DNA from: Flavobacteriaceae bacterium
Lineage (GTDB): Bacteria; Bacteroidota; Bacteroidia; Flavobacteriales; Flavobacteriaceae
Assembly (NCBI GenBank): GCA_965277255.1
Contig: CBDICL010000005.1
Span: forward strand, 28,963 to 92,962
DNA length: 64,000 nt
Direction: 5' to 3'
Part shown: positions 21,755 to 63,003 of the stretch, piece by piece
How the letters are laid out: every line of letters begins with the position of its first letter
How positions within the stretch are numbered: the stretch's first letter is position 1
Made by a program: the position numbers and the translations under genes
Notes under the pieces: model-generated
What the model was told of the DNA's origin: nothing
Seen by the model: only the letters and a program-made list of their open reading frames with translations
Databases searched by the model: none

Positions 21755-21831
21755 AATATTGTTTTTTATTAATTAACATGCATGTATTTGATAAGTTTAT
21801 TATTACGCCATATATATAAGACTTAAAAAAG

Positions 21832-21878
21832 TGTGACGTTAGCCCCCTATTATATAACCTTAACAGGCTATTGTCGCA
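21832..21878. promoter_or_regulatory. Dyad (operator-like) site, copy 1
   Basis: TGTGACGTTAGC-N23-GCTATTGTCGCA; the same half-sites recur at 25083..25120 and 28112..28158. Confidence 0.7.
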
Positions 21879-22036
21879 TTACGCTGAAACTGTTGTTAGA
21901 TGTATAGATTTTTATGTTAGATATATAGAGGTTTTGTATTACACATAACTATTTGACAACCAGCGCTTTATATAAAACCCATTATTTTAACCCACCCCCC
22001 TAGCTATTGGTAACCAAGCACTTAGGTTTTTACCTT

Positions 22037-22067
22037 TTTGTTATGTGCAAATTGCACTATAATTTTG
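22037..22067 (+). promoter_or_regulatory. Bacteroidota sigma-A type promoter (-33/-7)
   Basis: TTTG (22037-40), 19-nt spacer, TAATTTTG (22060-67): exact match to TTTG-N19-21-TAnnTTTG at the head of the plus-strand arm. Confidence 0.6.
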
Positions 22068-22151
22068 AACTATTTCGTAGTAACCTCGCCCACACCCTGT
22101 TACCGTTTCGGGATTTAACCTCAGCACTTACTTCGAACCGATCTGTGTTTT

Positions 22152-22185
22152 TTACATACTAAACACGGTACCATCTGGATAATAT
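22152..22185 (+). repeat. 34-nt early-region element, copy 1
   Basis: TTACA TACT AAACACGG TACCATCT GGATAATAT. Confidence 0.8.
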
Positions 22186-22231
22186 AGTTAGGCTCCGACC
22201 TCAACCACACCCATCGACGGTAACATATTTT

Positions 22232-22265
22232 TTACAACCTTAACACGAACCTCTTTGGATAATAT
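22232..22265 (+). repeat. 34-nt early-region element, copy 2
   Basis: TTACA ACCT TAACACGA ACCTCTTT GGATAATAT; 27 nt upstream of ATG 22293. Confidence 0.85.
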
Positions 22266-22292
22266 AAGTGTAACAAATAAAACAAATACACA

Positions 22293-22454
22293 ATGTACAA
22301 AGTAATTAAAGAATCAAATTGGACAGACTCAAAAGGTAAAGTAAGAAACTTCTACAGTTTTGTAAGAGCAAATAGCATTGAAGAAGCTACAAAGTACAGT
22401 GCTCAAAAATGGGGATTAGATAATATAAAAGAAGTAATTGAATTTACAAACTAA
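22293..22454 (+). CDS. 53-aa early protein
   Basis: MYKVIKESNWTDSKGKVRNFYSFVRANSIEEATKYSAQKWGLDNIKEVIEFTN; stop lies inside element copy 3. Confidence 0.7.
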   Translation: MYKVIKESNWTDSKGKVRNFYSFVRANSIEEATKYSAQKWGLDNIKEVIEFTN

Positions 22455-22477
22455 ACACGAACCTCAACGGATAATAT
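22444..22477 (+). repeat. 34-nt early-region element, copy 3
   Basis: TTACA AACT AAACACGA ACCTCAAC GGATAATAT. Confidence 0.85.
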
Positions 22478-22500
22478 AAATGTAACTAAATATAACAAAC

Positions 22501-22605
22501 ATGAACACACTAACTAAAGTTGAACTATACATATTAGAAGATGCAATTATGGATTATTACTATTCCAGAGATAAGAATCCAAAACACTTAGAGTTACAAA
22601 GCTAA
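22501..22605 (+). CDS. 34-aa early protein
   Basis: MNTLTKVELYILEDAIMDYYYSRDKNPKHLELQS; directly downstream of element copy 3. Confidence 0.55.
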   Translation: MNTLTKVELYILEDAIMDYYYSRDKNPKHLELQS

Positions 22606-22710
22606 AATAACAAATATGATTAATAATATTAAGTAAAATAAGTTAAAACACACACATTCACACACTACAACACTCTCACTAAAAATATTAACAAATAAAC
22701 AACAACCATT

Positions 22711-22806
22711 ATGAGTAATGAATTAAGATTAAAAATAGAAAAGCAAAATGACAAGAACAGAAAGAGATTTTTCCTTCTATGGTCTTGGTATGAAACGAGT
22801 TACTAG
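22711..22806 (+). CDS. 31-aa early peptide (overlaps an alternative 46-aa ORF at 22748..22888)
   Basis: MSNELRLKIEKQNDKNRKRFFLLWSWYETSY with AAACAAC leader; which frame is real is uncertain. Confidence 0.4.
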   Translation: MSNELRLKIEKQNDKNRKRFFLLWSWYETSY

Positions 22807-22876
22807 AGTTACATTCTCACGAGGTCCTAGATGGAACAACATCAACTCAACTAAGATTTACTATGCACACACTAAA

Positions 22877-22910
22877 CTACAAGCTTAATACGACTTTAAA
22901 TGGATAATAT
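22877..22910 (+). repeat. 34-nt early-region element, copy 4
   Basis: CTACA AGCT TAATACGA CTTTAAAT GGATAATAT. Confidence 0.85.
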
Positions 22911-22929
22911 AAATGTAAAACAAACAACT

Positions 22930-23106
22930 ATGAAATACAACACTGCATTACACAACTACTTCAACCAACATAAAAACCTCGGCAAGTTATTCAATGAGAT
23001 GGATGCTATAGATATTGAAATTGATCCACTACATAATAAAAAACTATACTTACAAAGTCTAGGTTTCAGTCAAGAAAAAATAAACCAACTATTAAAAATA
23101 AAATAA
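22930..23106 (+). CDS. 58-aa early protein
   Basis: Likely start MKYNTAL at 22930; the track ATG at 22900 lies inside the repeat element. Confidence 0.7.
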   Translation: MKYNTALHNYFNQHKNLGKLFNEMDAIDIEIDPLHNKKLYLQSLGFSQEKINQLLKIK

Positions 23107-23107
23107 T

Positions 23108-23287
23108 ATGTCACAACTAACAAGACTACACGAGCTGAATGGTAAACTAGATATGCTACAAGATCTTAAAATATCTGGTCTAGGTTTATCACTTGACCAA
23201 CAACAAAAGTTGCTATACACACACCAACAAGTTCTTGACCAACGTTTCGAATTACTAAAACAAATTAAAAAAGAATATATACTATGA
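23108..23287 (+). CDS. 59-aa early protein
   Basis: MSQLTRLHELNGKLDMLQDLK...KKEYIL; ATGA-coupled to the next ORF. Confidence 0.65.
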   Translation: MSQLTRLHELNGKLDMLQDLKISGLGLSLDQQQKLLYTHQQVLDQRFELLKQIKKEYIL

Positions 23288-23436
23288 AAAAACCAAACCA
23301 ACTAATTGCACACGAAATATTTGAAGACAACCTTGAAGATTTCAAACAAAACAAAAGCTATAATGAGTTAGATAAACCAAACCAAATTGTGGTCTGTAGA
23401 ATTGTAAACAACTTAATAAGACAAGAATACTACTAA
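23284..23436 (+). CDS. 50-aa early protein
   Basis: MKKPNQLIAHEIFEDNLEDF...LIRQEYY. Confidence 0.65.
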   Translation: MKKPNQLIAHEIFEDNLEDFKQNKSYNELDKPNQIVVCRIVNNLIRQEYY

Positions 23437-23437
23437 T

Positions 23438-23551
23438 ATGATAATAATAAACAAATACACAGGACGTGACGTCTCAAGAGAATTCCTAGCCTTAATGGAA
23501 GGTATAATAACAAACGAAGAATTTGAACTAATAACATTAACACTAAAATAA
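23438..23551 (+). CDS. 37-aa early peptide
   Basis: MIIINKYTGRDVSREFLALMEGIITNEEFELITLTLK. Confidence 0.6.
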   Translation: MIIINKYTGRDVSREFLALMEGIITNEEFELITLTLK

Positions 23552-23556
23552 ACAAC

Positions 23557-23886
23557 ATGAGCTATACAAATTACAAAATAGATGAACTAGCACAAGATTT
23601 TTCTGAGGATGCATGGAATGCATTTCACAATGCAGAAATAAACGACCAAGATGATCTATATGATTATAGACACCAATGGATTGACGACAAAGTAATATAC
23701 ACACACGATTGCAAAAGATATATTGACGATTTAAACTATGATATATTTGAAGATCATGATTTATTTGGCCGTGCAGAAAACTGGTCGCAAGCAGCATATA
23801 ATGCTATCTACGACGCTCTAGATGAGTCCGATGACACTGTCTCTTGGTATGATATGGAACAGGTATTACAAGAAGCCACAAACTAA
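23557..23886 (+). CDS. Ocr (T7 gp0.3)-like acidic DNA-mimic, putative anti-restriction protein
   Basis: About 28 D/E versus 6 K/R in 109 aa; EINDQDDLYDYRHQWIDDKV...FEDHDL...AIYDAL aligns with Ocr [20 protein letters not shown]...FEDSGL...RIYEQL (Ocr sequence recalled). Confidence 0.65.
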   Translation: MSYTNYKIDELAQDFSEDAWNAFHNAEINDQDDLYDYRHQWIDDKVIYTHDCKRYIDDLNYDIFEDHDLFGRAENWSQAAYNAIYDALDESDDTVSWYDMEQVLQEATN

Positions 23887-23892
23887 ATAACA

Positions 23893-24018
23893 ATGGAAGA
23901 AATAACATTTGAACCAATTTACTGTAACTCTTGCAACAATACAGATCTTACATACAACCAAAGTATTATGGATTCATATTGTGCAAACTGTGGCGAATGG
24001 CAAGGCGGTGAATATTAA
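23893..24018 (+). CDS. 41-aa zinc-ribbon peptide
   Basis: CNSC...CANCGEW. Confidence 0.7.
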   Translation: MEEITFEPIYCNSCNNTDLTYNQSIMDSYCANCGEWQGGEY

Positions 24019-24023
24019 TACAA

Positions 24024-24057
24024 TTACAAACTAAATACGAACAACAATGGATAATAT
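24024..24057 (+). repeat. 34-nt early-region element, copy 5
   Basis: TTACA AACT AAATACGA ACAACAAT GGATAATAT. Confidence 0.85.
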
Positions 24058-24110
24058 ATACGAATCAGAAATAACAGAATATACTTATAACTTAATATGC
24101 TATACACACA

Positions 24111-24311
24111 ATGACTAACACATGGATATTTTATGGTAAAGACCATAGCGGAATTAAAACAATACACCACATTAAACAATGTAAACGCCCTGAAGCAACA
24201 AGCGAATACAAAGAAATGATGCACTTACTAGAAAATAATACTTATTACACAACAGGATATATGACTAGTAAAGCATGGAATAAAAATAACCAATATATAA
24301 AAGTAATATGA
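24111..24311 (+). CDS. 66-aa early protein
   Basis: ORF track; downstream of element copy 5. Confidence 0.65.
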   Translation: MTNTWIFYGKDHSGIKTIHHIKQCKRPEATSEYKEMMHLLENNTYYTTGYMTSKAWNKNNQYIKVI

Positions 24312-24645
24312 ACAAATTATAATTTACTACAGGTGTAGAAACAAGTAGCGGAAAAATCAATACTTGCTTAACGAATATCAGATCTCTGATAAATTTGGAA
24401 ACTACTGGATAAGTAATAAACCTTGTAAAAATTACAACTTAGATCATATATAAAAATTCACTAATGTATTGACAAAACAATACACTGGCAACTTACAGAT
24501 AATAATGATGATATGCTAATAACCCTGATTTATGAATTAGAATTAAAAATTAAACAACAAATATTATTTACATAAACCATTGAACAACTAACAAAAATTT
24601 AAAATTCGACTATTAGAATAAATTTGCATATCTACACACAAACAA

Positions 24646-24881
24646 ATGAAATCTATGTAGTATTACACGATCCATTAAATGAACTGGGAAAATAATGTAT
24701 TCTATTAAGACCAGACTTTGATATTCTAATAGAAACTATATCAGAATTAGATGAAGATGCTATTGTATACTGCTCAGATGTAGATGAATTCTTTCCTGAG
24801 TATGAAGTTGAAAACTTTATTGAATGCAATGATGAAGAATACAAAGTTGATAATGGAGTAATTAATTATTTTACAAAGTAA
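24646..24881 (+). pseudogene. Interrupted acidic ORF (start out of frame by one base; in-frame TAA at 24693)
   Basis: One frame reads IYVVLHDPLNELGK*CILLRPDFDILIETISELDEDAIVYCSDVDEFFPEYEVENFIECNDEEYKVDNGVINYFTK*; stop lies inside element copy 6. Confidence 0.45.
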
Positions 24882-24904
24882 ACACGAAGCATAACGGATA
24901 ATAT
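24871..24904 (+). repeat. 34-nt early-region element, copy 6
   Basis: TTACA AAGT AAACACGA AGCATAAC GGATAATAT. Confidence 0.85.
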
Positions 24905-24935
24905 TAACAAATAACAAACACAATTATATAAACAC

Positions 24936-25082
24936 ATGACACTACACGACGTATACATACTAGATAAAATAAATGAAAACAAAATGCATACAATGCATGA
25001 GAAAGCTTATATCGCTAAAAATAAATATCGAATAAAGTTACCAACTGAAACATTAAATGACTACTTTTACAATAACAAATAA
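24936..25082 (+). CDS. 48-aa early protein
   Basis: MTLHDVYILDKINENKMHTMHEKAY...YFYNNK. Confidence 0.6.
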   Translation: MTLHDVYILDKINENKMHTMHEKAYIAKNKYRIKLPTETLNDYFYNNK

Positions 25083-25120
25083 TACGACAATAGCAATTTA
25101 AATAACAGGCTAACGTCACA
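25083..25120. promoter_or_regulatory. Dyad (operator-like) site, copy 2
   Basis: TACGACAATAGC-N14-GCTAACGTCACA; intergenic; orientation inverted relative to copy 1. Confidence 0.7.
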
Positions 25121-25132
25121 AAACAAACAACA

Positions 25133-25282
25133 ATGGGTAAATTAATTATAACATATAAAGGTGAACAACTAGAATACTTAATCAATACAAAAGTAGCTGA
25201 CCACATATCTATGAAAGCTATTGAACACATATTAAAAGAATTCCCACCTGAGGCACCCGTTGATTTTATAGAACTATATTAA
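25133..25282 (+). CDS. 49-aa protein
   Basis: MGKLIITYKGEQLEYLINTKVADHISMKAIEHILKEFPPEAPVDFIELY. Confidence 0.65.
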   Translation: MGKLIITYKGEQLEYLINTKVADHISMKAIEHILKEFPPEAPVDFIELY

Positions 25283-25287
25283 ATATT

Positions 25288-25434
25288 ATGGCAGGAAATA
25301 AACACAACACACAATTTGCTATACACAAACCTAATACATATCAGTTAGTGTATAAAGATTTATACAACGAAAAATGTATAATGACTGGAACACCAAAACA
25401 AATTATAAACTACATACTTAACCAGCAACTATAA
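25288..25434 (+). CDS. 48-aa protein
   Basis: MAGNKHNTQFAIHKPNTYQLVYKDLYNEKC...ILNQQL. Confidence 0.6.
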   Translation: MAGNKHNTQFAIHKPNTYQLVYKDLYNEKCIMTGTPKQIINYILNQQL

Positions 25435-25439
25435 CATAT

Positions 25440-25602
25440 ATGATGGTCCTCTACCCCGTTGGCTTCGGCGAGGATAAGGATTAGCTACCTGAAGAACCCG
25501 CACAAGGGACACCATCATTATAATATTAAAAGCTACAGAGGATTACCGACGGGTAAATATAATCTCGAGATGAAGTAAGGGTAATGTTCCTTCTCCTCTG
25601 TA
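25440..25602 (+). ncRNA. Candidate structured RNA (two tandem multi-stem domains); strand uncertain
   Basis: GC-rich intergenic island. Closing stems ATGATGGT/ACCATCAT (25440-47/25511-18) and TACAGAGGA/TCCTCTGTA (25534-42/25594-602); inner hairpins TTACC-GACG-GGTAA, AAGGG-TAATGT-TCCTT, C-UUCG-G. Confidence 0.5.
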
Positions 25603-25637
25603 CCATATTAAATAATAACTTTAAAACAACAATTAAA

Positions 25638-26210
25638 ATGAAAAAAACTATCTTAACATTAATTACAATTGCAAGTGTATCTTGCACAGTAGACTTTGAC
25701 GATATGAATTTTTATATCGATGAGCTTAAAATGATTGAACAAATAAATTTAAATGAAGCCACACAAACACAAACGCAATCAACAACATTAACTACAACTG
25801 TATCTAATACATTATATAATAATATACAAAGTAAATTAGATTGGGTTGCTTATTTTAACACTTGGTCTGTTAGAGATCATCAATGGCTTCAATACATAGA
25901 GGCTCAAGAACCGGGTTTTACAATGTTATTTAACTTTGAAAACAATCAAATAAACATACCTAATATGCCTACTTGGAGTTATCCTTTAGATGGTCAATAC
26001 AAAATTGAAAATCAAAATAATATTATTGTGGCCTTAATTAAAGATGAATCTAAACGTATTGCAGATATACCTGAAAATTCAACACATATAAGATTTGTAT
26101 ATAGATATTCAAGTGATGAAACATTATATACACCTTATGTTGAAATTAAAGAATTATATAATAAATTCTTTGTAAACTATCAAGGAGAAATAACATATTC
26201 AAACAATTAA
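25638..26210 (+). CDS. Predicted lipoprotein
   Basis: Likely start MKKTILTLITIASVSC: signal peptide with lipobox Cys, followed by a T/Q-rich linker. Confidence 0.7.
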   Translation: MKKTILTLITIASVSCTVDFDDMNFYIDELKMIEQINLNEATQTQTQSTTLTTTVSNTLYNNIQSKLDWVAYFNTWSVRDHQWLQYIEAQEPGFTMLFNFENNQINIPNMPTWSYPLDGQYKIENQNNIIVALIKDESKRIADIPENSTHIRFVYRYSSDETLYTPYVEIKELYNKFFVNYQGEITYSNN

Positions 26211-26214
26211 TATT

Positions 26215-26379
26215 ATGTCAAAACAATATAAAAAGAAAAAAGAATTAATAATAACTGATCCTACAAAATTCCCTGATGACTTTTGGAACTACTGGGTAAA
26301 CCCTATTGTTGGTTATTATATACCACAAAAAAGATCACAAACAAGAAAAGAATCAAGAAAAAAACAATTACAATCTTAA
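26215..26379 (+). CDS. 54-aa protein
   Basis: MSKQYKKKKELIITDPTKFPDDFWNYWVNPIVGYY...KQLQS; stop lies inside element copy 7. Confidence 0.65.
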   Translation: MSKQYKKKKELIITDPTKFPDDFWNYWVNPIVGYYIPQKRSQTRKESRKKQLQS

Positions 26380-26401
26380 CACGAACATTAACAGATAATT
26401 A
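26368..26401 (+). repeat. 34-nt early-region element, copy 7
   Basis: TTACA ATCT TAACACGA ACATTAAC AGATAATTA. Confidence 0.75.
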
Positions 26402-26419
26402 ATTAAACAAACAAACATT

Positions 26420-28111: not shown

Positions 28112-28158
28112 TATGACGATAGATCGTTATAATATTATAGTAATAAGCTAATGTCGCA
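28112..28158. promoter_or_regulatory. Dyad (operator-like) site, copy 3, overlapping the start codon of the HTH gene
   Basis: TATGACGATAGA-N23-GCTAATGTCGCA; ATG 28151 lies in the right half-site. Confidence 0.65.
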
Positions 28159-28765
28159 TAGAAATACAAAATATCTTGACAATAAAAGAATAGTGTACAG
28201 GAGAAATCCTATAACAGATATACCAACTATATCTTTTGATTGGGGTAATTTTTATGAAGAAGGCACTTATGAATGTTATGAGTTATTTAGAAGCAAAGCC
28301 AAAATAACAACTTATAAGTCACTTAAATGGCATGTCTTAGTATTATGGTATTTAAATCCTCAATTAAATAAAGAGGAATTTGAAGATATAATTTATTTTA
28401 TAACAGATAAGGAAAATGGATTTGTTACATTTTTTACTCCTGAAAAAGTTATAAGGGAAATTATTACCCACGTAATGCTGCATGATTTAGAGGAACCACC
28501 AAAAAATAAACTCAGAAAAATAATCTTTAAAGACAACTCAGGATTACTTATATCCGAAAAGATGTCAATAGTAGGTAAATTGATTGGAAAAATAAAAAAA
28601 GCCGATCATAGTGATATTTACGAAACAATGTTGTACCTTCATGACGGTAATGAAAGGATTACAATAAAAAAGATCGCAAATATATTAGATGTATCTACTA
28701 GAACAATATATCGAAACATGAACGATAAATTGAATAAAGAAAAAGAATTATTAAATGAGTTATGA
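28151..28765 (+). CDS. C-terminal HTH DNA-binding protein (regulator or replication-initiator-like)
   Basis: ITIKKIANILDVSTRTIYRNM helix-turn-helix. Confidence 0.75.
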   Translation: MSHRNTKYLDNKRIVYRRNPITDIPTISFDWGNFYEEGTYECYELFRSKAKITTYKSLKWHVLVLWYLNPQLNKEEFEDIIYFITDKENGFVTFFTPEKVIREIITHVMLHDLEEPPKNKLRKIIFKDNSGLLISEKMSIVGKLIGKIKKADHSDIYETMLYLHDGNERITIKKIANILDVSTRTIYRNMNDKLNKEKELLNEL

Positions 28766-29526
28766 AAAAATATAATATACAGAACTATGTAAGATATAAG
28801 GAAGATGTATTAAATTCAATAAGGTTAATAGAAAATAAACAATTGAATGAATATACTAGAGATGAGCTTATAATAACATTTTTGCCATTAGTTGAGAATA
28901 TTGCAAGAAAATTTGCTACTTCACAACAAGCTTCAGGCGTTATGGATATTACTGATTTAATTCAAGAAGGTTCAAAAGGTTTAATAAATGCTGCTGATAA
29001 AATAATATGGGAAACCATTACAGAATCAACGGACCCAGAGAAAACTATTAAATCATTTTTATCAAAAAGAATTAAAGGTGCAATTAGAAGAGCTATAGAT
29101 ATAAATAGAGGAGATATAAGAATACCGGAACATAAGTTAAATGAAATAAGAAAAGATAACGGTAAGAATGAAAAAATGGTTTCAATGTTTTTTAATTCTA
29201 TTTTTTTAAGTATTGAAGAACAAGCTAGTTCATTAGATGATGAAAATATGGTTTATCAAATACCAGATCAAGCTGAACCGTATAATATTAATTTAATGAA
29301 TAAATATTTAGAAGGCTTACTGAAAAAACATTTAAATAAAAAAGAGTTTGAAGTATTAAGATTATCTTACGGATTAGATTGCGATAAACATTCAGCTAAT
29401 GAAATTGCTGAAATATTAAACATTGATGGCCCTAGTGCATACGTAAGAATATCAGAGTTAAAAAAGCAAGCAATAAATAAATTAATAGAAAATGTAGATG
29501 CAGGCCAAGTGCTTGATTTCCTGTAG
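28762..29526 (+). CDS. Phage-encoded sigma-70 family RNA polymerase sigma factor
   Basis: Region 2 FLPLVENIARKF...DLIQEGSKGL; region 3 IRIPEHKL; region 4 LNKKEFEVLRLSYGL...EIAEIL...RISELKKQAINKL. Confidence 0.9.
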   Translation: MKKYNIQNYVRYKEDVLNSIRLIENKQLNEYTRDELIITFLPLVENIARKFATSQQASGVMDITDLIQEGSKGLINAADKIIWETITESTDPEKTIKSFLSKRIKGAIRRAIDINRGDIRIPEHKLNEIRKDNGKNEKMVSMFFNSIFLSIEEQASSLDDENMVYQIPDQAEPYNINLMNKYLEGLLKKHLNKKEFEVLRLSYGLDCDKHSANEIAEILNIDGPSAYVRISELKKQAINKLIENVDAGQVLDFL

Positions 29527-29579: not shown

Positions 29580-30140
29580 ATGAGTATTAAACAAAAACTA
29601 AGTTCAATTCAACAAGATTTTAAAGCAAAAAAATCTCGTTACAACTCATTCGGTAAGTACAACTTTAGATCTGCCGAGGACATTCTGGAAGCATTAAAAC
29701 CTATGAATAAAAAGCATGGAGTTTATTTTACGATTAGCGAAGAGCTAATTGCAAGTGATCCTATGCCTATTATTAAAAGTACGGCTAAAATAGTTGATGC
29801 TAAAGATGGTGATTCTATTCAAGCTGAAGCAATTGTTGGTGTAGATTTAAATCAAAAAGGTATGCAAGTACCTCAACAGTTTGGTTCTGCGTCTAGTTAT
29901 GCTAAAAAATATTCATTAGGTAATTTATTACTTATTGATGATACGGCTGATTCTGATGCAACAAATACTGGAGGCAACCAACCTAAAAGTAATTTAGTTA
30001 GAAATACGGCTAAACCTGAAATTAATATGGATAACATTGAACAAGCTAAGAAATTTTTAGCAAGTGGAGGTTCTATAGAAACATTGCATGAAAAATACAC
30101 TATTAGCCCAACTATGTTGAAAATATTAAAAAATGGATAA
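29580..30140 (+). CDS. ERF-family ssDNA annealing protein
   Basis: YNSFGKYNFRSAEDILEALKP...QQFGSASSYAKKYSLGNLLLIDD..DSD. Confidence 0.88.
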   Translation: MSIKQKLSSIQQDFKAKKSRYNSFGKYNFRSAEDILEALKPMNKKHGVYFTISEELIASDPMPIIKSTAKIVDAKDGDSIQAEAIVGVDLNQKGMQVPQQFGSASSYAKKYSLGNLLLIDDTADSDATNTGGNQPKSNLVRNTAKPEINMDNIEQAKKFLASGGSIETLHEKYTISPTMLKILKNG

Positions 30141-30864
30141 AAATAAAATTTTAAAAAAATTACAAGAAGATGAGCATTACTATGGAGAATTTGGTAGGCA
30201 ATATTTAAGTAATTCTGATATAATGGCATTACTTAATAATCCTTTGGATTTTAAAAAGCCATCACAAGCATCCTCAGCTTTTTTAATTGGAGGATATTTT
30301 CACACTTGTATATTAGAACCAGATAAATTAAAAAAATATAAAGTTGTTCAATCATCAAATAGAAATACTAAAGTATATAAAGAAATATCTGAAGGAGAAT
30401 TATGTTTGTTACAACATGAAGTAGATATGGTTGAAATGCTTAGAGATAAAATGTTTGATAATCAAATTTGTAAAGACTTTATACAAAATCCAAATAATGA
30501 TTATGAAGTACCAGGTATTGTTGAATTACAAGGCAATATGTGGAAAGGTAAAGCTGATATTATTAATCATGATGAAAAGTTAATTATAGATTTAAAAACT
30601 ACAAATGATATATCAAAATTTAAATGGAGTGCATCTAAATATAATTATGATAGTCAGGCTTACATTTATAGAAAAATGTTTGGATATGATTTTTTATTTA
30701 TAGTTGTAGATAAAAATACACAACAAATTGGTATCTTTGATTGTTCAGACAGATTTTACGAATCAGGAGCTGATAAAGTAGTGAGAGCTACAGAGGCTTA
30801 TGAATTATTTTATAAAACCGAAGGATTTGACCCTTCACAATATTTTTTAACTAAAACCCTTTAA
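30133..30864 (+). CDS. PD-(D/E)XK exonuclease (RecE/ExoVIII-like)
   Basis: YLSNSDI...GGYFHTCILEP...KGKADI...IIDLKTT...Y..QAYIY. Confidence 0.85.
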   Translation: MDKNKILKKLQEDEHYYGEFGRQYLSNSDIMALLNNPLDFKKPSQASSAFLIGGYFHTCILEPDKLKKYKVVQSSNRNTKVYKEISEGELCLLQHEVDMVEMLRDKMFDNQICKDFIQNPNNDYEVPGIVELQGNMWKGKADIINHDEKLIIDLKTTNDISKFKWSASKYNYDSQAYIYRKMFGYDFLFIVVDKNTQQIGIFDCSDRFYESGADKVVRATEAYELFYKTEGFDPSQYFLTKTL

Positions 30865-40335: not shown

Positions 40336-43300
40336 TTATTTAATACCTGTTTTAATGTTTGATTTACTTATTCCTGTACTTATTTTTGAAGGCTTAACTA
40401 TTTTAGCCTTTTTTTTCTTTTCTTCTTTCATACCAATTTCCCAATCTTGCCATCCTGATAATAAAGCAACTCGTTGCCACATTTCAGCATCTTCAGATAA
40501 AGCATTTTGTACGTTATCTATTTTTCTTAATGCTCTATCAACAGGTAAGTTAGTAGCCCCAGCTATAATTTGAGCGCCAGCCATAGCAGCAGGGTTTTCT
40601 AAACTTAAACCTTTTTCTCGTATTTCTTTTCTATTCCAACTAATTTGTCTACCAGCTGATCTAAATTTAGAAATCTTAGATGATATTGGTGGTGATATTT
40701 CAAGTAACTTCCAAGCAGCTTCTTCAAACTTAGGTGCTTTTTTATCAGATTCTTGTGCTATTTTAATAGCTACATTTTTAGCAACAGAAACAGCAGCACC
40801 AGCAAATCCTAATCCTCTTAAAATACTATCCGACATACTATTAGCCATGCGAATATATTTTTTATTCATTTCATCTTCTTCTTCATCATCACCAAATGCA
40901 ACAGCAAATAATGCTTGCTGTAAAGCGGTAAATATAATGTTCTGAACAACCATATAATATATAATCTTAGAAACATTTGTTTTAAGGTCACCACGGCCAT
41001 TCTTAATGTCCAGAACAGCTTTTTTAGTTAATCTAGCATACTGAGCTGGGGTGTTTGCAAAAGCCAATACAATGCGTCCTAATGGTCCCGCTTGCTGTTG
41101 ACTAATACGTGAAGGATCAGAAGATTGTTGAGATTCAGTTGCTGTTTCTCTAAAGTCACGCATAGCTATTGCTTCAGCCTCTTCTTTTGTATATCCTTCT
41201 TTAACTAAAGAATTAAATCTATTTCTATAAAAACTAGCTCCACCTGATGCAATTGCAAAACTATCTGCAATTTGTGTAGGTAAGAAACCAGCCTTTAATA
41301 GTTGACCCATGATTGCTTTAGCTTTATTAGTAGACGTTTTGGCTAGATCTGCGATTTCAGATTCGTTTACATCGATCTTTAAACCATTACGTCTTTCAAC
41401 TAAGAACGGTGAGTTCATAAGCATCATAAAGTCTTTAGTCCATTGTTTTGGGTTTAAAAATGCTTTAGCAGCAGCTAATACATTATTATCACTCCAATTT
41501 ATAAAGTTTACAGCAGAAATTGTTTGAAGTACAGCTGATCTTGAATTTAAAAACATAATAGTACCAATTGAATTAGAAATCCAATCAGTAAATCTACTAG
41601 TTAAAGCATCTCCACCAAAGCTTCTATTTCTACCGCTTTTCATTCTTCCAAGAATGTTTTCTAAAGCTATTCTATAAGGTTTACCATAAGCAGCCTCTAG
41701 TTTATTTAAATTATCTTTTGAAAATATAGCGTTTACATTTTCTGTCCATCCAGACTCTTCTAAATATTTTGTTCTTCTTGTTGTGCTTAATGTTTTTAAT
41801 AAATCTGCATCAATAGATCCTGCATCCCACCATTTTGCACCAGGAGAAGCATATTCTCCTTGCGTTATTTCCATTAATTGATCTGCAAATTTTAAAAGAT
41901 TAGGATCTTTTTTAACAAACTTAATTAATTGATCTAAATCAGCCTTATCCATACCGTTTTCTTCAGTAAGCATGTCAACACCTTGCTTGTTCCAAATATA
42001 AACACGAACCGCATCTTGCTGAGAATATTGAGTACCTGGTAATTTTTTACGTAAGTTTTTAGGTACAATTTTTAATTGCTTTTTAAGCTCTTTAAAGTCC
42101 TTAGCTAATTGTACGCGATCACGAGTTATATTATTAAGAGCATCTGTATATGGATTTAATAAGTTGTACTTATACCATGCCATCTGTTGATCTCCTAATT
42201 TATCCTTTCCTAATGTAGCATATAATAATCCTACAAAATCTTCAGCCCCTGGTGGAATAAAAAATTTCCATTTACCTTTACTAGCACCTTCAACCTCTGC
42301 TTTTGCTTTTTTATAAACTTTATCAGCAGCAATACCAGTTTTATCTTCAATAATTTTATTAAAGTCTTCGCTTAATGTTGCGTTTTCTTTCGCGCTATTT
42401 TTTTGGTCAATTAAGTATTCTAAATCTTTTTCAACATTTAAAATATTATTATATCTTTTAGGAAATGTACCTTTCTCTTTTAGTTCAGATTTATTAAGTT
42501 TTTTAGTATTTTTTTCTGTAATAAAATCAACAAAACTTTTATTTAATTCATTCTTTACTAAAATGTAATTTTCTTCTTTAGATTTGTTTTTATCTATAGC
42601 TTTTTTAATATTACTTCTTAATTCTTTAATAGGTGGAGTATGCTCATAAACAAGTTTCTCTCCTGGTTTACCTTTTTCTACAGATCTAATTTTTCCCGCA
42701 AACCTTAATGCGCTATCACTAGCAGCACCCATTATTTGTAAATATTCATCTACTCCTTTTTCATTACCTTCGCTAATTAATTTAGCTATTTTATTTGCTA
42801 AATAATTGCTATAGTCTTTATTCATATTGTCTTGAGCAGACTTTTGTTTAATTAATGTATTATAAAAACTTTTCCATCCACTTTTTCCTAAAACAATAGA
42901 GTTTTGACTAGGTCGATATTTACCTTCAAAATCATTTAATGCAACATTTTTATAAAATATACCTTGGCCTCCAAACTTCCCTGATTCAGCTAATTTAAAG
43001 TTTTTAATAGTTTCTTTATCAAAAACATTTTGTTCATTAAACCATGTCCACGCATGTTTTACCGCCGCTGACTTTTTATTAAATATATAACCTTCTTTAC
43101 CTAATTTAAGTTTAGCTATTCCAGATAACTCATATTTTAAAAAATTATAAATAGCCGTTTCCTTTTCTTCAATAGTTTTGGCTAATTTTACATTATTTTT
43201 TAAATTGCTTATGCTGTTGTTTAAAACATTAAAAGTTCTAATTTTAATAACTCCACTATCAATATCTTCAGTAGCAGTTTCTATTTTAGTTATATCCCCT

Positions 43301-46300
43301 AAATCTTCTACTTTTTTATAAATATTTTCAAGCTTTTCTTCAACAACAAGTTTTTCTTCTTTTGTTTCAAAAAGATCTTGAGCGGCTTTTATACCAGCTT
43401 TTAGTGCTTTAGCAAAGTCATTAGTTAATTTTAAAGTTGCTTTTGTTGCTTTTAAGAACGCTTTTGCAGCGGCAATAGATAATTCAGGTATACCTAATGA
43501 TACATACAAATTTTGGTTATTTTTCTGTAAATTATCAAGATAATTAATAGCTCTATCAATTTTTTCAGAAATAATTTCAATAAAATTAGCAGGAACTTCT
43601 TGTCCTTGCAATTCTTGCACTGCTACAAATTTATTTTTTATGTCTTCTTTTGACAATGCATTTAATACATTATCTAAACCTATTTCATCAGCTAATACTT
43701 TTGCTAATGATGTTTTACGGGCTCCTTTAACATTACCAGGTGCATTTAAAAAATACTTTATAAACTCAGCTTTAGTTATATCACGTTTTTTAAATACTTT
43801 TTTACCCTCAGCTGTTTTTTCTCTTAATTGTTTACCTGTTTCAGGGTCTACAACAGCCTCGTTAAATTCTTTAAAATTACGGTTTATAGTTTCTTGTGGA
43901 ATTGCAGGATATATTTTTTCAAAATTATCTCTTAAAAATTGCTCGTATGATGCTTGACGACCAAATACCGTTTTAAATGTATTAGTTAATTCATTTCTAA
44001 AACCAGTAGTTAAAGCTTGTCTAAACTTTTTATCTGTTACAGCGGGTAATTTAGTACCTAATGTTTTTTCAACAGCTTTTACAATATCATTTTGAGTTGT
44101 TTCATCTAAGTTTAAATCCTTAGCTAATGCTGTTTTTACTTCTTGCTTTACTTGCTCTTGTTGTGTAACAATATCTTCCGCGGTTTCAGTAGCGGTAACA
44201 GCTTTAGCCTCAGTAACATCTTGTGTAAATTCTTTACCTAAAATTCTTTGAGAAGCCTCAATTGCTCTATTAGGTAATTGTTTATTTATAAAACCAGCTA
44301 ATGGTGCTACAGGTTGATTAGCAGCTTCTTGTTTTTCTACATATTTAGGGTATGCGTTAACTAAATCAAGAATACCTCTTTTACCTACTTGTATTTCAGA
44401 AGTAAGCAACTCTCTGTCAAAATTGGGAGCATCTCTACGCTTGTCAACTATTCTATCTACTATAGGTTTAAATTCTTTAAATATTTCGTTAATGCCTTCA
44501 ACACCTTTATCATTGTAAATTTGTTGAACTTTGCTAGAGGCTACTTTTTCTTTTGTTATAATTTTTTGTACAGCTTGTTCTGCTTCTGTTAATGGAGCAG
44601 TTTGTTCTTGTGTATCTATTTCTTCAGATACAACTTGTTCTGGTTTAGTTTCTGCAGAATCAGCAATGCCTTTAATCCTGTTTTTTGCGTTAATATAAGT
44701 TGTCTTATAACCTTCTAAAGCAATTAAATAATCACTTCTTTTAATATTACCCTCATCTAATTCTTTATTTAATTCTTTAACGCGTTGAACTTGCAAATTA
44801 GCAAGATCACCCATTGAATTAACCTCATCAATTTCTGTTTTATTTAATTTAGGTATTATAGCATTACTTTTAGTAATCCTTGAAGATAATCTGCTGTTTA
44901 CATCATTAATTTTTTGTTGTATACCTTCCTTACCTACTTTGCTTTCTGTAGAATTATACTGTTTTTGCAATTCAGATAATTCGTTTATATCTGCTTGTAT
45001 ACCTTCGTTGTCAGCAGGTGCTCTTAAATTGCTTGCTGCTTTTAAAAGATATCTGCTGCCTTTAATTCCAACCGCGCCACCTAATCCCTGTAAGCCACTT
45101 TCAAGACCTTCTTGTGATGCCATACCCTCTACCATAGCTAATGCTGCTTTTGAGGAGTCTCCAGTTTTTCCTAAAACTCTATTGTATTCATCAATTCCAA
45201 ATTGAAAATTTTCTGTTATAAATTCCGTTTTTCCAGAACTATATATATCTAATACTTTAACACCTAATGGTGAATCTAAAAATTTATTTGAAATAACTTT
45301 TATACCATTCTTTTTTATAGGTGAAAGCATGGATGATAAACCAACAACATCAGACACGGCTTGTATACCAGCTAAAGCAACGGGGGCTTTGGCATTATCT
45401 TTCCCTTCAATTATAAGATTTTCAAGAGTTGTATTTTCTCTTTTAGCTAATTCTTCATTAAAAGTTACATAATTTTCTGCAGCAAAATCCGCATAAAAAC
45501 CTGAACCAACAGTACCAGCACCAAAACCAGCGGAACCAACCATACTCACCATTGAACTTAGTATAGCAGCTCCTCCTTTAAGAATTTCACCTTGCTTAAA
45601 ACTTTCAATAATAGGTAATGTTTGTTTTCTTTTTTCTTGCTCCGCTTTTAATTTAGGTATACTTTTAAGTATCTCTTTAGTCCCAAGACCTTTTGTTAAT
45701 GAAACAGGAAGCCCCATTACGGGTATGCTCACTCCGCGATATTTTTCTACAAATTCATCGACATTCTCTTGCCCAAAAATAGCCTTATATACAGCTGCAG
45801 TAGCTAGGTCTAAAGCTGGAGATTCACCTGACCAAAAACTTTTTATTTTTTTAACATCTTGTCCAACATTTAAAGCAGCATTGCTTAAAGATTCAGACAT
45901 GTCCATATTAATAACACTGTTAATTTTTTCCTGCTCTTCTTGTGCTAATTTATTTGCTTCATTTAAAATATTTCTAGCGCCTGTATCAATTTGTTCTGCT
46001 GTAAAATTATAATTTTGAGGGTCTGGAGCATTATTTATTAATTGCTCTTGAGCTAAATCTTGAATATATAAGCGATCTTCATTAGACAATTCTTCTAAAT
46101 TAAATGCTTCAAATGATTCTGCAATATCTTCTACTTCATTATTTAATATTTTTTCTTCTTTTCTTTTTAAATCACCTTCTCTAGTTTTTTTTCTAATACT
46201 AGTTTTTGGTGACTCCAAAGAAATATCCTCCAATACTAATTCCGTAGCTTGACTTTCGGGTGCTGCAGTTTCCTCCACAACCGCACCCGGTGCTGTGGGG

Positions 46301-46413
46301 GTTTCCTTTCCCTCTTCTTCAACTAATACAGCTGTAGGGTTATCTAATATAAAATCATTTACAACATCATCAGGGATGTTATATATGGTACCGTTTAAAT
46401 TAAATTTTGGCAT
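40336..46413 (-). CDS. Large internal virion / DNA-ejection protein (2025 aa)
   Basis: Size, helical composition and position as last of three genes after the tail genes (T7 gp14-16-like synteny); inference. Confidence 0.65.
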   Translation of the reverse strand: MPKFNLNGTIYNIPDDVVNDFILDNPTAVLVEEEGKETPTAPGAVVEETAAPESQATELVLEDISLESPKTSIRKKTREGDLKRKEEKILNNEVEDIAESFEAFNLEELSNEDRLYIQDLAQEQLINNAPDPQNYNFTAEQIDTGARNILNEANKLAQEEQEKINSVINMDMSESLSNAALNVGQDVKKIKSFWSGESPALDLATAAVYKAIFGQENVDEFVEKYRGVSIPVMGLPVSLTKGLGTKEILKSIPKLKAEQEKRKQTLPIIESFKQGEILKGGAAILSSMVSMVGSAGFGAGTVGSGFYADFAAENYVTFNEELAKRENTTLENLIIEGKDNAKAPVALAGIQAVSDVVGLSSMLSPIKKNGIKVISNKFLDSPLGVKVLDIYSSGKTEFITENFQFGIDEYNRVLGKTGDSSKAALAMVEGMASQEGLESGLQGLGGAVGIKGSRYLLKAASNLRAPADNEGIQADINELSELQKQYNSTESKVGKEGIQQKINDVNSRLSSRITKSNAIIPKLNKTEIDEVNSMGDLANLQVQRVKELNKELDEGNIKRSDYLIALEGYKTTYINAKNRIKGIADSAETKPEQVVSEEIDTQEQTAPLTEAEQAVQKIITKEKVASSKVQQIYNDKGVEGINEIFKEFKPIVDRIVDKRRDAPNFDRELLTSEIQVGKRGILDLVNAYPKYVEKQEAANQPVAPLAGFINKQLPNRAIEASQRILGKEFTQDVTEAKAVTATETAEDIVTQQEQVKQEVKTALAKDLNLDETTQNDIVKAVEKTLGTKLPAVTDKKFRQALTTGFRNELTNTFKTVFGRQASYEQFLRDNFEKIYPAIPQETINRNFKEFNEAVVDPETGKQLREKTAEGKKVFKKRDITKAEFIKYFLNAPGNVKGARKTSLAKVLADEIGLDNVLNALSKEDIKNKFVAVQELQGQEVPANFIEIISEKIDRAINYLDNLQKNNQNLYVSLGIPELSIAAAKAFLKATKATLKLTNDFAKALKAGIKAAQDLFETKEEKLVVEEKLENIYKKVEDLGDITKIETATEDIDSGVIKIRTFNVLNNSISNLKNNVKLAKTIEEKETAIYNFLKYELSGIAKLKLGKEGYIFNKKSAAVKHAWTWFNEQNVFDKETIKNFKLAESGKFGGQGIFYKNVALNDFEGKYRPSQNSIVLGKSGWKSFYNTLIKQKSAQDNMNKDYSNYLANKIAKLISEGNEKGVDEYLQIMGAASDSALRFAGKIRSVEKGKPGEKLVYEHTPPIKELRSNIKKAIDKNKSKEENYILVKNELNKSFVDFITEKNTKKLNKSELKEKGTFPKRYNNILNVEKDLEYLIDQKNSAKENATLSEDFNKIIEDKTGIAADKVYKKAKAEVEGASKGKWKFFIPPGAEDFVGLLYATLGKDKLGDQQMAWYKYNLLNPYTDALNNITRDRVQLAKDFKELKKQLKIVPKNLRKKLPGTQYSQQDAVRVYIWNKQGVDMLTEENGMDKADLDQLIKFVKKDPNLLKFADQLMEITQGEYASPGAKWWDAGSIDADLLKTLSTTRRTKYLEESGWTENVNAIFSKDNLNKLEAAYGKPYRIALENILGRMKSGRNRSFGGDALTSRFTDWISNSIGTIMFLNSRSAVLQTISAVNFINWSDNNVLAAAKAFLNPKQWTKDFMMLMNSPFLVERRNGLKIDVNESEIADLAKTSTNKAKAIMGQLLKAGFLPTQIADSFAIASGGASFYRNRFNSLVKEGYTKEEAEAIAMRDFRETATESQQSSDPSRISQQQAGPLGRIVLAFANTPAQYARLTKKAVLDIKNGRGDLKTNVSKIIYYMVVQNIIFTALQQALFAVAFGDDEEEDEMNKKYIRMANSMSDSILRGLGFAGAAVSVAKNVAIKIAQESDKKAPKFEEAAWKLLEISPPISSKISKFRSAGRQISWNRKEIREKGLSLENPAAMAGAQIIAGATNLPVDRALRKIDNVQNALSEDAEMWQRVALLSGWQDWEIGMKEEKKKKAKIVKPSKISTGISKSNIKTGIK

Positions 46414-60591: not shown

Positions 60592-63003
60592 TTACCTAGG
60601 CGTAAATTGTTCTAGGCCAAATCCACCCAGGCTGTCGTTACCGGATGATTCAAAGTTCTTAGGTAATAAATCATTTTGTCTTTGATCTATTAATTCAGAC
60701 TGTTGAGTTCCTTGTATACGAACTCTTTTATCTTTTCTGTCTTCAATCTGTCTTTCTTTTTGTGTATCAGCTTGAGCTTTAATTTGAGCTAACTGCATTT
60801 GATAATTAAATTCTTCTGCCATTAGTTCACGTTTAATTTGAGCTTCAGTTTGTAATCTTTGAATTTCAAATTGTGATTTAGCTTGCTCAATACTTACTTT
60901 TTCTTGAGTTAAAGCTTGTTGTTTTTGTACTTCTGATAACGCAGCAGCTTCTGAGGCTTGAGCATTTGCTTGTGCTTGTGCTTGAATATTAGCAATCTGC
61001 TGTGCCTCTGCTGCTTCTTGTTTTTTCTTTCTTTTAAACTTAAGTAATTGATTAGCTAATTTTAAGTTTTTAATCTCTCTAATATCTATTGCATCTTCAA
61101 GATCAATACCACCAGATTGTAAAGCTACTTGTATGTTTTGTTCAAGCTGTGCTTTTTCTTCATCATCAGGTTCTAACTCTAAATAAATACCAAAATCATG
61201 TAAATTAAGGTTTGAAATTTCTTCTAATGTTTTAACATTAAATGTTGAAATACTATTTTTTAAAGCGTTAGCTGTAAGTGGAAAGCTTAAAGCATCTGCA
61301 ATTCTTAAAGAAATATTTTCACATACTCTTAAATATATATACATTCCACCTTGTAATATATGTCTTGTAGCAACATTAGATGCATTAGCAGCCATTTTTT
61401 GCAGACCAACTAAAGCATTTTTGTCTGGATTACTTCCATCTACTGCTTCATTAAGGCCAGTTACGTCACGTATCATTTGTAAATAATACTGATATGTATT
61501 TATTAAAGAAGTTATTTTGCCTTGACCAGATGAAGTTGCTAATTCTTGTACAGGTATTTTACCTCTATTTAAATCACCGTCTTGAGTTAATGATCTACCA
61601 ACAATACTACCCGTTTGAAAATACATATTCAATGCTTCAGCAGGATTATAATTAGTTCCATTACCAAGATCTACTTCCGCTAATCCATCCATATCTAAGA
61701 ATACACCATCAGGAACTATTCTTGACATGACTTGCTGTAATTTTAAATGAGTTAATTGAATCATATCAGCAAAACTTGTAACTCTGCTAACTATTGACTC
61801 AATTTTACCTTTATACATTCTTGGTGCAGCAATTGTATAATTCATTTTAACTTTAGTAGTATCAGCATAAGGTCTAGTCATATGCTCAGCTAATCTCCAG
61901 TCCAGCATTGTATTAGTTCCTAATACTTTAGCACCAGAATATAAAACTTCTATACTTCTTGACACTCTTTTAAAGTTGTCATTTTCCGGCGGATTAAATT
62001 CATCTGTTTTTTGAATAACTTTTTCTAATCCACTTTCAGTTTGTTTTATTTTAAATACTTGATTATTATATGTCTTGTATTCAAAGTAAAGTACTTGAAC
62101 AGTATTACTATCATAATTTCCCCAACCAGTAACATATTGGCTGTTGCCAGGCATGTTTTGAATATTTTTTAATTCTTCTTCAGATATATTAGGAAATTCT
62201 TTTTTTAATTCTGGAATTGTTATTGCTTTAATTTCCCCAGCATAATAAATATCTTCAAAATTAGGATCTTCTGTATATGAATAAACTAAATAGGATGGAT
62301 CTACATAATCAACAGTAATACCGTTGCTTTTATTAAAGCTTGTTTTTGCTGCCCCAATACCAATAACAGTTAAATCGTAATTTACTCTTCTTTTAATTGA
62401 TTCGTATTTATTAAAATCAAGTACATTATTAATAGCTTCTTCTTCCGCTATTTCAATAGCCTCCTTATAACTAGTTTGTAACATTATTTCTAGTTCTTCT
62501 GGTGTTTCTGGCAATTGATCTGCGGGTATAGATGAATTAGAAAAATCTTCTCCTAATATTTGATTACCAATTTGCTGAAGTTCTTGTGTATACATGTCAC
62601 GTAATACAGCTTTAGCATAATTTGTTTTTTTCTCAATAGACGCTGGGTCTTGAGCATATGCTTTTATTTCAACTTCTTTTTCTGATATACCATTTACTAA
62701 AATATCTACAAATTTTGGTATTACAGGAACTGGTTTCCAATCTAAATTAAGATAAGATAAATCACCATTAATAGATAATTCATCTTTATATTTTTGTATT
62801 GATTGTTCACCTCTTGCATATAATCTTAATGAATGAAAATTATTCCAATTAGTTAAATATCTATTACCGCTAGTTCTACCTTGATCAAACCATTCTTGTT
62901 CTATAGCGTGTGCTACTTGAGTACCATATTCTAAACTAGATTTTTCAGCATCGCTAACTACTTGGCTAGGAAAAGAACTATTAGTATTTGTTTGTATATT
63001 CAT
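60592..63003 (-). CDS. Portal protein
   Basis: 803 aa directly after terL; LNLDWKPVPVIPKFVDILVNG...YQYYLQMIRDVTGLNEA.DGS.P..LVG.QK.A; Q-rich crown. Confidence 0.88.
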   Translation of the reverse strand: MNIQTNTNSSFPSQVVSDAEKSSLEYGTQVAHAIEQEWFDQGRTSGNRYLTNWNNFHSLRLYARGEQSIQKYKDELSINGDLSYLNLDWKPVPVIPKFVDILVNGISEKEVEIKAYAQDPASIEKKTNYAKAVLRDMYTQELQQIGNQILGEDFSNSSIPADQLPETPEELEIMLQTSYKEAIEIAEEEAINNVLDFNKYESIKRRVNYDLTVIGIGAAKTSFNKSNGITVDYVDPSYLVYSYTEDPNFEDIYYAGEIKAITIPELKKEFPNISEEELKNIQNMPGNSQYVTGWGNYDSNTVQVLYFEYKTYNNQVFKIKQTESGLEKVIQKTDEFNPPENDNFKRVSRSIEVLYSGAKVLGTNTMLDWRLAEHMTRPYADTTKVKMNYTIAAPRMYKGKIESIVSRVTSFADMIQLTHLKLQQVMSRIVPDGVFLDMDGLAEVDLGNGTNYNPAEALNMYFQTGSIVGRSLTQDGDLNRGKIPVQELATSSGQGKITSLINTYQYYLQMIRDVTGLNEAVDGSNPDKNALVGLQKMAANASNVATRHILQGGMYIYLRVCENISLRIADALSFPLTANALKNSISTFNVKTLEEISNLNLHDFGIYLELEPDDEEKAQLEQNIQVALQSGGIDLEDAIDIREIKNLKLANQLLKFKRKKKQEAAEAQQIANIQAQAQANAQASEAAALSEVQKQQALTQEKVSIEQAKSQFEIQRLQTEAQIKRELMAEEFNYQMQLAQIKAQADTQKERQIEDRKDKRVRIQGTQQSELIDQRQNDLLPKNFESSGNDSLGGFGLEQFTPR

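Follow-up and report, generated by a model that had tools for sequence, protein, structure and literature searches.

The high-information early promoters of phages T4 and T5 are read by the unmodified host polymerase and keep the canonical -35/-10 spacing. Coliphage N4 and crAss-like phages use a delivered virion polymerase; in N4, the early promoters are hairpins and the giant virion protein carries a T7-like polymerase domain. Promoters of the sigma-28 (FliA/SigD) class have the layout TAAA-N15-GCCGATAA. In T4-type phages, repeated early promoters also occur in hyperplastic regions of small ORFans, where modules are shuffled, and these units, named promoter-early stem-loops (PeSLs), combine a host sigma-70-like promoter with a terminating stem-loop (Arbiol et al. 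2010, PMC2839356; Comeau et al. 2014, PMC4122927). Moreover, the Cellulophaga crAss-like phage phi14:2 possesses tripartite middle promoters that are read by the host RNA polymerase (Drobysheva et al., 10.1101/2020.03.07.982082). The present study concerns a 64,000-nucleotide (nt) stretch of a Flavobacteriaceae assembly (G000:C7:28963-92962, hereafter the window), which carries a podovirus-like phage and in which a 40-nt element of three conserved blocks is repeated seven times on the plus strand, among tiny early genes. We lean toward reading these elements as the early promoters of the phage, recognized by the host RNA polymerase.

Like PeSLs, the elements are repeated motifs among variable, small and mostly unknown genes, and the junctions of indels and replacements coincide with them. 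Unlike PeSLs, they have neither a stem-loop nor a terminator and upstream open reading frames (ORFs) end inside them; compared with the sigma-70-type promoter of PeSLs, they show a -10-like GATAAT and a conserved geometry, yet do not match the host consensus, and they belong to a ~63-kb podovirus-like phage of a Bacteroidota host. The elements work like PeSLs, but are not filed as members, since the defining stem-loop terminator and host-consensus promoter are absent. With the early promoters of T4 and T5 they share many tandem copies before small host-takeover genes, a conservation that extends beyond two hexamers and, as reasoned below, use at time zero, whereas their upstream block stands 20 nt from the -10-like box with a third block between. 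The predicted extended three-block promoter in a phage of the Flavobacteriia resembles those of phi14:2, but the upstream promoter of phi14:2 g070 (TTGACT-N17-TATATTTG) holds the TAnnTTTG box, which the element lacks. A GATAA core in the -10 region (invariant here) and, comparably far upstream, an A-rich element recall sigma-28 promoters, from which the element differs in three respects: GCC is not kept, C preceding GATAAT in some lineages only; nothing in sigma-28 promoters corresponds to the middle block; and the upstream block is CAAA at a 16-nt spacing, one base more. As in N4, several phage-specific, here predicted, promoters unlike those of the host stand at the start of the early region, but no hairpin was found, nor was a polymerase domain seen in the giant virion protein.

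The element and its conservation across a phage clade

A pattern search of the window confirmed the seven same-strand elements named in a preliminary description of this DNA, which begin at 22152, 22232, 22444, 22877, 24024, 24871 and 26368, all on the plus strand. With up to three mismatches allowed, the described pattern fitted copies 1 to 7 with 0, 0, 0, 1, 0, 0 and 3 mismatches, respectively, and gave no match in 100 dinucleotide-preserving shuffles of the window used as control; a weight-matrix scan revealed no additional copy on either strand of the window. Copy 1 (22152-22191, 33.8 bits), which is not followed by an ORF, forms a tandem pair with copy 2 (22232-22271, 44.2 bits), 80 nt further on, and copy 2 precedes a 53-amino-acid (aa) ORF at 22293-22454. 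Copy 3 (22444-22483, 50.9 bits) contains the stop codon of the preceding ORF and is followed by an ATG at 22501, and copy 4 (22877-22916, 42.2 bits), a CTACA variant, contains the stop codon of ORF 22748-22888. Copy 5 (24024-24063, 50.6 bits) has its next good ATG at 24111, and copy 6 (24871-24910, 42.0 bits), which is missing from the variant on contig C18, precedes ORF 24936-25082. The last of the array, copy 7 (26368-26407, 22.8 bits), has the degenerate form AGATAATTA and lies 2.4 kb before the gene of a phage sigma factor, and the majority of relatives likewise have one element copy 2.2-2.9 kb upstream of sigma. This sigma-70-family factor of 254 aa (28762-29526, plus strand; PHROG 351, E = 1.9e-20; weak Pfam matches to regions 2 and 4) is encoded on the strand of the seven elements, all of which lie upstream of its gene, and its occurrence coincides with that of the arrays.

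Among 389 distinct copies of the family, the consensus is TTACAAA-N3-AAYACGA-N9-GATAATATA followed by a purine at position 39, with TTACAAA at positions 1-7, AAYACGA at 11-17 and GATAATATA at 27-35; GATAAT is essentially invariant, a weak A/T stretch follows GATAATATA, and the position-39 purine is preceded by T. The consensus given in the preliminary description thus captured a real pattern, but treated as fixed several positions (S8, T9, W10 and G26) that are lineage-specific, so that its strict form fits only 21 of the 389 family copies. The distance of 21 nt that it gave between TTACA and GATAAT is correct, and the statement that five copies lie 18-31 nt before a start codon agreed with the sequence and the ORF list: from the end of the 34-nt element, the next ATG is 27, 23, 19, 31 and 18 nt away for copies 2, 3, 4, 6 and 7, respectively, the gap being 53 nt for copy 5, with copy 1 lacking an ORF. 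The stop codons said to lie inside four copies are firm for copies 3, 4 and 7 (ORFs 22293-22454, 22748-22888 and 26215-26379), and would be found in copies 1 and 6 only via doubtful ORFs.

Across the assembly, 19 copies were detected, all in the phage contigs C7 and C18, and the 3.9-Mb host chromosome contained no exact-pattern copy; with the weight matrix, 519 matches were obtained in 1.0 Mb of related phage loci versus two weak ones in the host chromosome, both strands being scanned. An exact-pattern scan of IMG/VR recovered at least 120 stretches with the element, mainly from contigs of 40-70 kb, and a few metagenome-assembled contigs labelled Bacteroidetes or Flavobacteriaceae also carried it. 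To avoid ascertainment by the pattern, 80 loci were collected via the phage sigma protein (58-99% identity). Every sigma-anchored locus with at least ~2.5 kb of upstream sequence held 4-12 elements, and 440 of the 454 copies in these loci were on the same strand as sigma and upstream of it. In the reverse check, sigma was found in six of the seven pattern-derived loci with enough downstream sequence, the seventh beginning past the sigma position, and an opposite-strand copy, always single, was seen in only 4 of 126 loci. The motif was absent from Flavobacterium phage elemoA, MW202828, Cellulophaga phage phi14:2 and the sister contigs C9, C10 and C21; the elemo phage, MW202828 and the three sister contigs lacked both the motif and sigma. 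No description of the motif or of the sigma-bearing clade was found in the literature searched, and no close sigma homolog from a cultured phage was present in the phage collection searched, which may omit the nearest records of the window. As for the sister contigs themselves, their repeated words are a coding repeat, an iteron array and palindromes, including a 19-nt iteron array of the AAAGTGATGTGTCACT type (G000:C21:62040-62220) and six copies of the palindrome GCGTTTAAACGC (G000:C10:91-3713), both on contigs with neither the element nor a sigma gene.

From the sequence we infer promoter activity, a start site and a likely holoenzyme. In the proposed layout, TTACAAA would lie at about -38 to -32 and AAYACGA at about -28 to -22, and GATAATATA would supply the -10-like GATAAT at -12 to -7; with GATAAT taken as this hexamer, the start site is expected at the T-purine step at positions 38-39, that is, transcription is predicted to begin at the conserved purine of position 39. 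Leaders would then be short and A-rich (~17-25 nt), and mRNAs would be leaderless where an ATG occupies positions 39-42. Start codons were found 55-64 nt after the element start in 157 of 334 cases, and the conserved start codon of sigma (MKKYNIQNY) occurs at element positions 39-42 in six separate lineages, a placement that would fit leaderless transcripts initiated at that point. Furthermore, the sequence downstream of the element is A-rich and G-poor, and such leaders are typical of Bacteroidota. No hairpin was predicted for the elements (folding energies 0 to -4.3 kcal/mol, z-scores -0.96 to +1.12), dyad symmetry was absent, and neither an Rfam family nor a tRNA matched them, so that a structured RNA was rejected as their identity. 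Since no convincing terminator was found between the units of the array, the successive promoters would feed a common rightward transcript. The rightward block comprises tiny accessory genes, regulators, the phage sigma, recombination genes and, in some relatives, replication genes.

Proposed exchange of accessory genes at the element

The small-ORF array between the elements (22293-26379, plus strand; median ORF length 68 aa across the family) fits the cassette-array picture drawn in the preliminary description. Among 56 genomes, the array ORFs formed 253 families, mostly rare, with 128 singletons, 212 families in at most 10% of the genomes and only seven in at least half of them; the median element spacing was 704 nt, and units held 0-14 ORFs, with a mode of one. 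In an all-against-all comparison of 57 early regions, in which a breakpoint was assigned to an element when it fell from -20 to +60 nt of its start, the share of homology ends at elements was 27.7% on the left and 19.0% on the right, compared with 7.4% of random positions (2.6-3.7-fold). Left ends showed a sharp peak at the first bases of the element, and right ends peaked 50-65 nt into it, immediately ahead of the ATG. Breakpoints fell on 115 of the 334 gene starts with an element (34%) and on 216 of the 1015 without one (21%), giving an odds ratio of 1.9 (p = 2e-6) from data points that are phylogenetically related.

Alignments within the assembly illustrate the pattern. Behind copy 2, each of the three assembly variants has a different gene, homology stopping ~16 nt past the element and resuming ~10 nt before copy 3. 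The three variants share the element and leader at copy 3, but the genes upstream of it are unrelated, and homology begins at the left edge of the element; this copy is chimeric, its left halves differing and its right halves agreeing. The suggestion that the element is a recombination handle thus receives moderate backing from the roughly twofold enrichment of breakpoints over other gene junctions and from chimeric elements, whereas many breakpoints occur at junctions without an element and the spacers are not homogenized within genomes. Uninterrupted identity between non-allelic copies is only ~10-17 nt, and selection for intact transcription units alone could produce the enrichment at junctions. 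A mechanism can still be sketched, in which the element and its leader (~60 nt) would, as a secondary role, form a shared junction for swaps of accessory-gene modules between related phages. Two recombination proteins of the phage itself, an ERF single-strand annealing protein and a PDDEXK exonuclease (29580-30864, plus strand; Pfam ERF, E = 1e-36; DUF3799, E = 1.4e-22), homologs of which recur in the loci of relatives, would probably help and could use such short homologies.

Candidate readers of the element

The host chromosome (C1, 3.9 Mb) is typical of Bacteroidota, and the upstream regions of 20 of 29 host tRNAs contain TAnnTTTG. As had been noted in the preliminary description, the element matches neither the Bacteroidota -33/-7 promoter, since no copy has the TAnnTTTG of that promoter, whose -33 TTTG lies ~19-20 nt upstream, nor the sigma-70 spacing, a two-hexamer scan missing TTACA...GATAAT at every copy. 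Under a model of TTGACA, a 16-18-nt spacer and TATAAT, GATAAT matches TATAAT at five of six positions, with TTACAA 20 nt upstream, and the sole two-hexamer match inside a copy is TAAACA-17-TATAGT (9/12, 22160-22188). A host-type promoter-like site, TTTG-N19-TAATTTTG, lies on the plus strand at 22028-22067, 85 nt upstream of copy 1, but it is replaced by unrelated sequence in the two closest variants of the window. Only 1 of 33 arrays had a host-type promoter upstream, and 448 kb of early regions contained nine sense-strand host-type promoters versus 11.7 +/- 3.2 in shuffles, which is the chance level. A conserved host-type promoter ahead of the arrays was therefore ruled out, with one in the window and none kept in relatives. 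Because no other conserved promoter precedes the sigma-containing block, the elements would have to act at the start of infection, before phage proteins, and it is on this logic that the word early in the proposed phage-specific early promoter rests. The remainder of that proposal is well supported, if indirectly, by conservation across the clade, co-direction, the distance to start codons, GATAAT, the mismatch to host promoters and the absence from the host.

Some further host-type matches were recorded. The only sense-strand host-type sites of the early block are 22028-22067 and 24619-24626 (TAAATTTG followed by CA), both on the plus strand; the latter falls in a 400-nt stretch with no credible ORF between copies 5 and 6, at which the C18 variant has an intact ORF instead. 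In the early regions of 57 relatives, antisense host-type matches outnumbered sense ones fivefold (54 versus 9), an excess that is probably a by-product of the strong sense-strand skew of A over T.

On the reading that we favor, the polymerase would be the host core enzyme, since no phage RNA polymerase gene (T7-like included) was present among the annotated ORFs and the giant virion protein shows no support for a polymerase. It would most likely act with a pre-existing factor, probably the host primary sigma used non-canonically, while the phage sigma would serve the divergent leftward structural operon. The RNA polymerase of Cellulophaga baltica (Flavobacteriia) transcribed the sigma-70-type T7 A1 promoter, whose -10 is GATACT, in vitro (10.1101/2020.03.07.982082), a precedent for the use of sigma-70-like promoters by a Flavobacteriia polymerase. 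Several observations weigh against this reading: the elements lack both host consensus boxes, TTACAAA stands 20 nt from GATAAT and hence beyond the normal -35 distance, and the conserved middle block, which has no counterpart in primary-sigma promoters, hints at an extra reader. The strict clade-wide co-occurrence of the phage sigma with the motif arrays, sister phages lacking both, also weighs against it. For the accessory-gene part of the reading, the breakpoint enrichment is about twofold over other junctions and comes from phylogenetically related data, and spacer positions 18-24 are not homogenized within genomes. The co-occurrence and the mismatch to the host consensus would equally be expected if the elements were promoters of the phage sigma itself, of delayed-early or middle type, with initial sigma coming from read-through, weak host promoters or the virion and then amplifying its own production, an alternative that we regard as possible though doubtful. 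In a profile comparison with the PDB, sigma matched SigA as well as FliA chains, the latter along its entire length, and the GATAA core, in an 8-nt -10 region that follows TTACAAA at ~16 nt, bears a loose resemblance to the sigma-28 layout. In a manual comparison (E. coli numbering), the phage sigma has KRIKG where the host primary sigma (287 aa) has the usual WWIRQ; it thus has no WW pair, is altered at the positions reading the first base of the hexamer, and must read a different -10. The element also abuts the sigma ATG in several relatives, and the one good host-type promoter upstream of the array in the window could supply the first sigma. However, sigma is encoded downstream of the elements and has no conserved promoter of its own, the host-type site of the window being absent from its two closest variants; the genome-specific base beside GATAAT departs from the sigma tree while the region that would read the -10 is invariant; and the leftward structural operon would be left with no obvious dedicated factor.

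A reader delivered with the DNA, that is, a virion RNA polymerase or specificity factor in the 2025-aa protein or in another ejected protein, would satisfy both the time-zero requirement and the non-host consensus, and a giant protein is indeed present in the virion module, with ~3700-aa proteins at the same place in relatives. We nevertheless consider it improbable, given that the 2025-aa protein has no DxDxD or T7-like polymerase motifs, that the elements form no N4-like promoter hairpins, and that models of residues 540-1010 and 1340-2025 gave no structural match to a polymerase or sigma. A virion RNA polymerase in this protein was rejected as unsupported, as no motifs and no match in Pfam, PHROG, the PDB or phage records were obtained, even with a 22-sequence profile. 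A sigma region-2-like segment in it was rejected too (BLASTP E = 4.2; hhalign probability 0.2% over 18 columns; no sigma fold match). AlphaFold predicted two conserved parts of the protein, residues 540-1010 and 1340-2025, to be all-helical (pLDDT 72 and 65), and Foldseek returned no match with E < 0.1 for these two models. The 2025-aa protein (40336-46413, minus strand) has hundreds of metagenomic homologs of 1200-2900 aa with no known domain; long hydrophobic helices are predicted in its C-terminal part, and it may be an ejection or channel protein. Very improbable, in our view, is that the elements are not promoters at all but recombination or DNA-binding sites, or RNA-level signals, for instance for processing or translation, carried by a long early transcript. 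Their strand specificity, intergenic position and inclusion of the stop codons of upstream ORFs would suit such roles, as would the enrichment of breakpoints, and the one upstream host-type promoter of the window could give the long transcript. Against this, the elements lack secondary structure and dyad symmetry; the constant spacing of the invariant GATAAT to the purine and to start codons is typical of promoters; relatives have no conserved upstream promoter for a long transcript; and the spacers are not homogenized.

The base before GATAAT bears on the identity of the reader. At position 26 (G in the window, at 22177, 22257 and 22469), pairs of copies are identical in 76% of within-genome and 26% of between-genome comparisons, and spacer positions 18-24 show no within-genome uniformity of this sort, which indicates a position-specific constraint rather than homogenization. 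Mapped onto the sigma tree, the preferred base changes at least 19 times, while the residues of sigma regions 2.4-3 that would read position 26 are invariant, and the phage sigma is thus an unlikely reader of this position. A search for a protein residue tracking position 26 in sigma, the neighboring helix-turn-helix (HTH) protein, ERF and the exonuclease yielded clade-level associations only, the candidates being no stronger than controls, and the presence or absence of array genes showed only clade effects. The uniformity points to a reader that differs between phages or hosts, and a host factor differing among host lineages would fit. A broader but unlikely proposal is that the elements form a promoter class of Bacteroidota phages read neither by canonical primary-sigma recognition nor by a newly made factor. 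The host core polymerase would then be directed at time zero by a specificity factor travelling with the DNA, such as the phage sigma or some other protein of the virion, or by an unrecognized host factor, and position 26 would be a private code matching each array to its reader.

Genome context and significance

Contig C7 (117 kb) spans ~1.9 genome lengths and contains two related, non-identical phages of ~63 kb head to tail, so that the window wraps just over one genome length. In a comparison of the window ends (1-1460 versus 62540-64000), 4-303 matched 63105-63404 at 79%; the two portal copies of C7 are only 58% identical, and its early regions are 97% identical. Either co-existing phage variants were joined during assembly, or C7 represents a real heterodimer. 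The gene content is podovirus-like, with a portal 43-52% identical to those of Flavobacterium elemo phages and one uncultured phage, and portals of Cellulophaga, Tenacibaculum and Maribacter phages match it at less than 60% identity. The minus strand of 1-21754 encodes the large terminase, GroEL-like genes and tail fibers. The plus strand of 22.1-39.3 kb carries the tiny ORFs, a DnaA-C-like HTH protein, an HTH protein, the sigma factor, the ERF annealing protein, the PDDEXK exonuclease, a primase-helicase and nucleotide-metabolism genes. The portal, the 2025-aa protein and further virion proteins are encoded on the minus strand of 40336-64000. If the genome is circular or permuted, this stretch and the first one join into a single long leftward operon, whose sole large upstream gap is the divergent control region 21755-22290, inside which copies 1 and 2 lie. 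No nucleotide similarity of the region to phage records was found.

In this control region, outside the element family, a dyad-flanked segment (21835-21875, minus strand) belongs to the divergent leftward operon: an inverted repeat, GACAnTAGCC-N21-GGCTAnTGTC, surrounds an AT-rich TATATAA core and is conserved in ~20 relatives. A second dyad lies in the array (25084-25119), and a half-site (28146-28157) covers the ATG of the HTH gene at 28151; the dyad region is probably the operator of the HTH protein together with the late-operon promoter. In addition, a C-rich box, CCCACCCCCC, occurs at ~21995-22005, and several relatives have it too, 60-130 nt ahead of their first element. The tandem pair of copies 1 and 2 also recurs, copy 2 always standing 78-80 nt after copy 1 in relatives. 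At least six diverged relatives share the conserved sequence that follows copy 1 (22186-22231; ATAGTTAGGCTCCGA...), which may represent a binding site or a short non-coding transcript. Among the small ORFs, a GC-rich non-coding island with apparent stems (25434-25620) had no Rfam match at the gathering score or at an E-value threshold of 1.

The phage clade described here, of ~60-70 kb, is common in marine viromes and has no cultured member in the phage collection searched. Its 40-nt signal, which would mark each of the early transcription units, lets arrays of early, probably anti-host, genes be annotated in metagenomic contigs, and the element provides a defined template for studying how Bacteroidota RNA polymerase is recruited without the TAnnTTTG box. 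If the proposed roles hold, the arrays would constitute a second case, independent of that in T4-type phages, in which accessory genes are exchanged as modules bounded by promoters.

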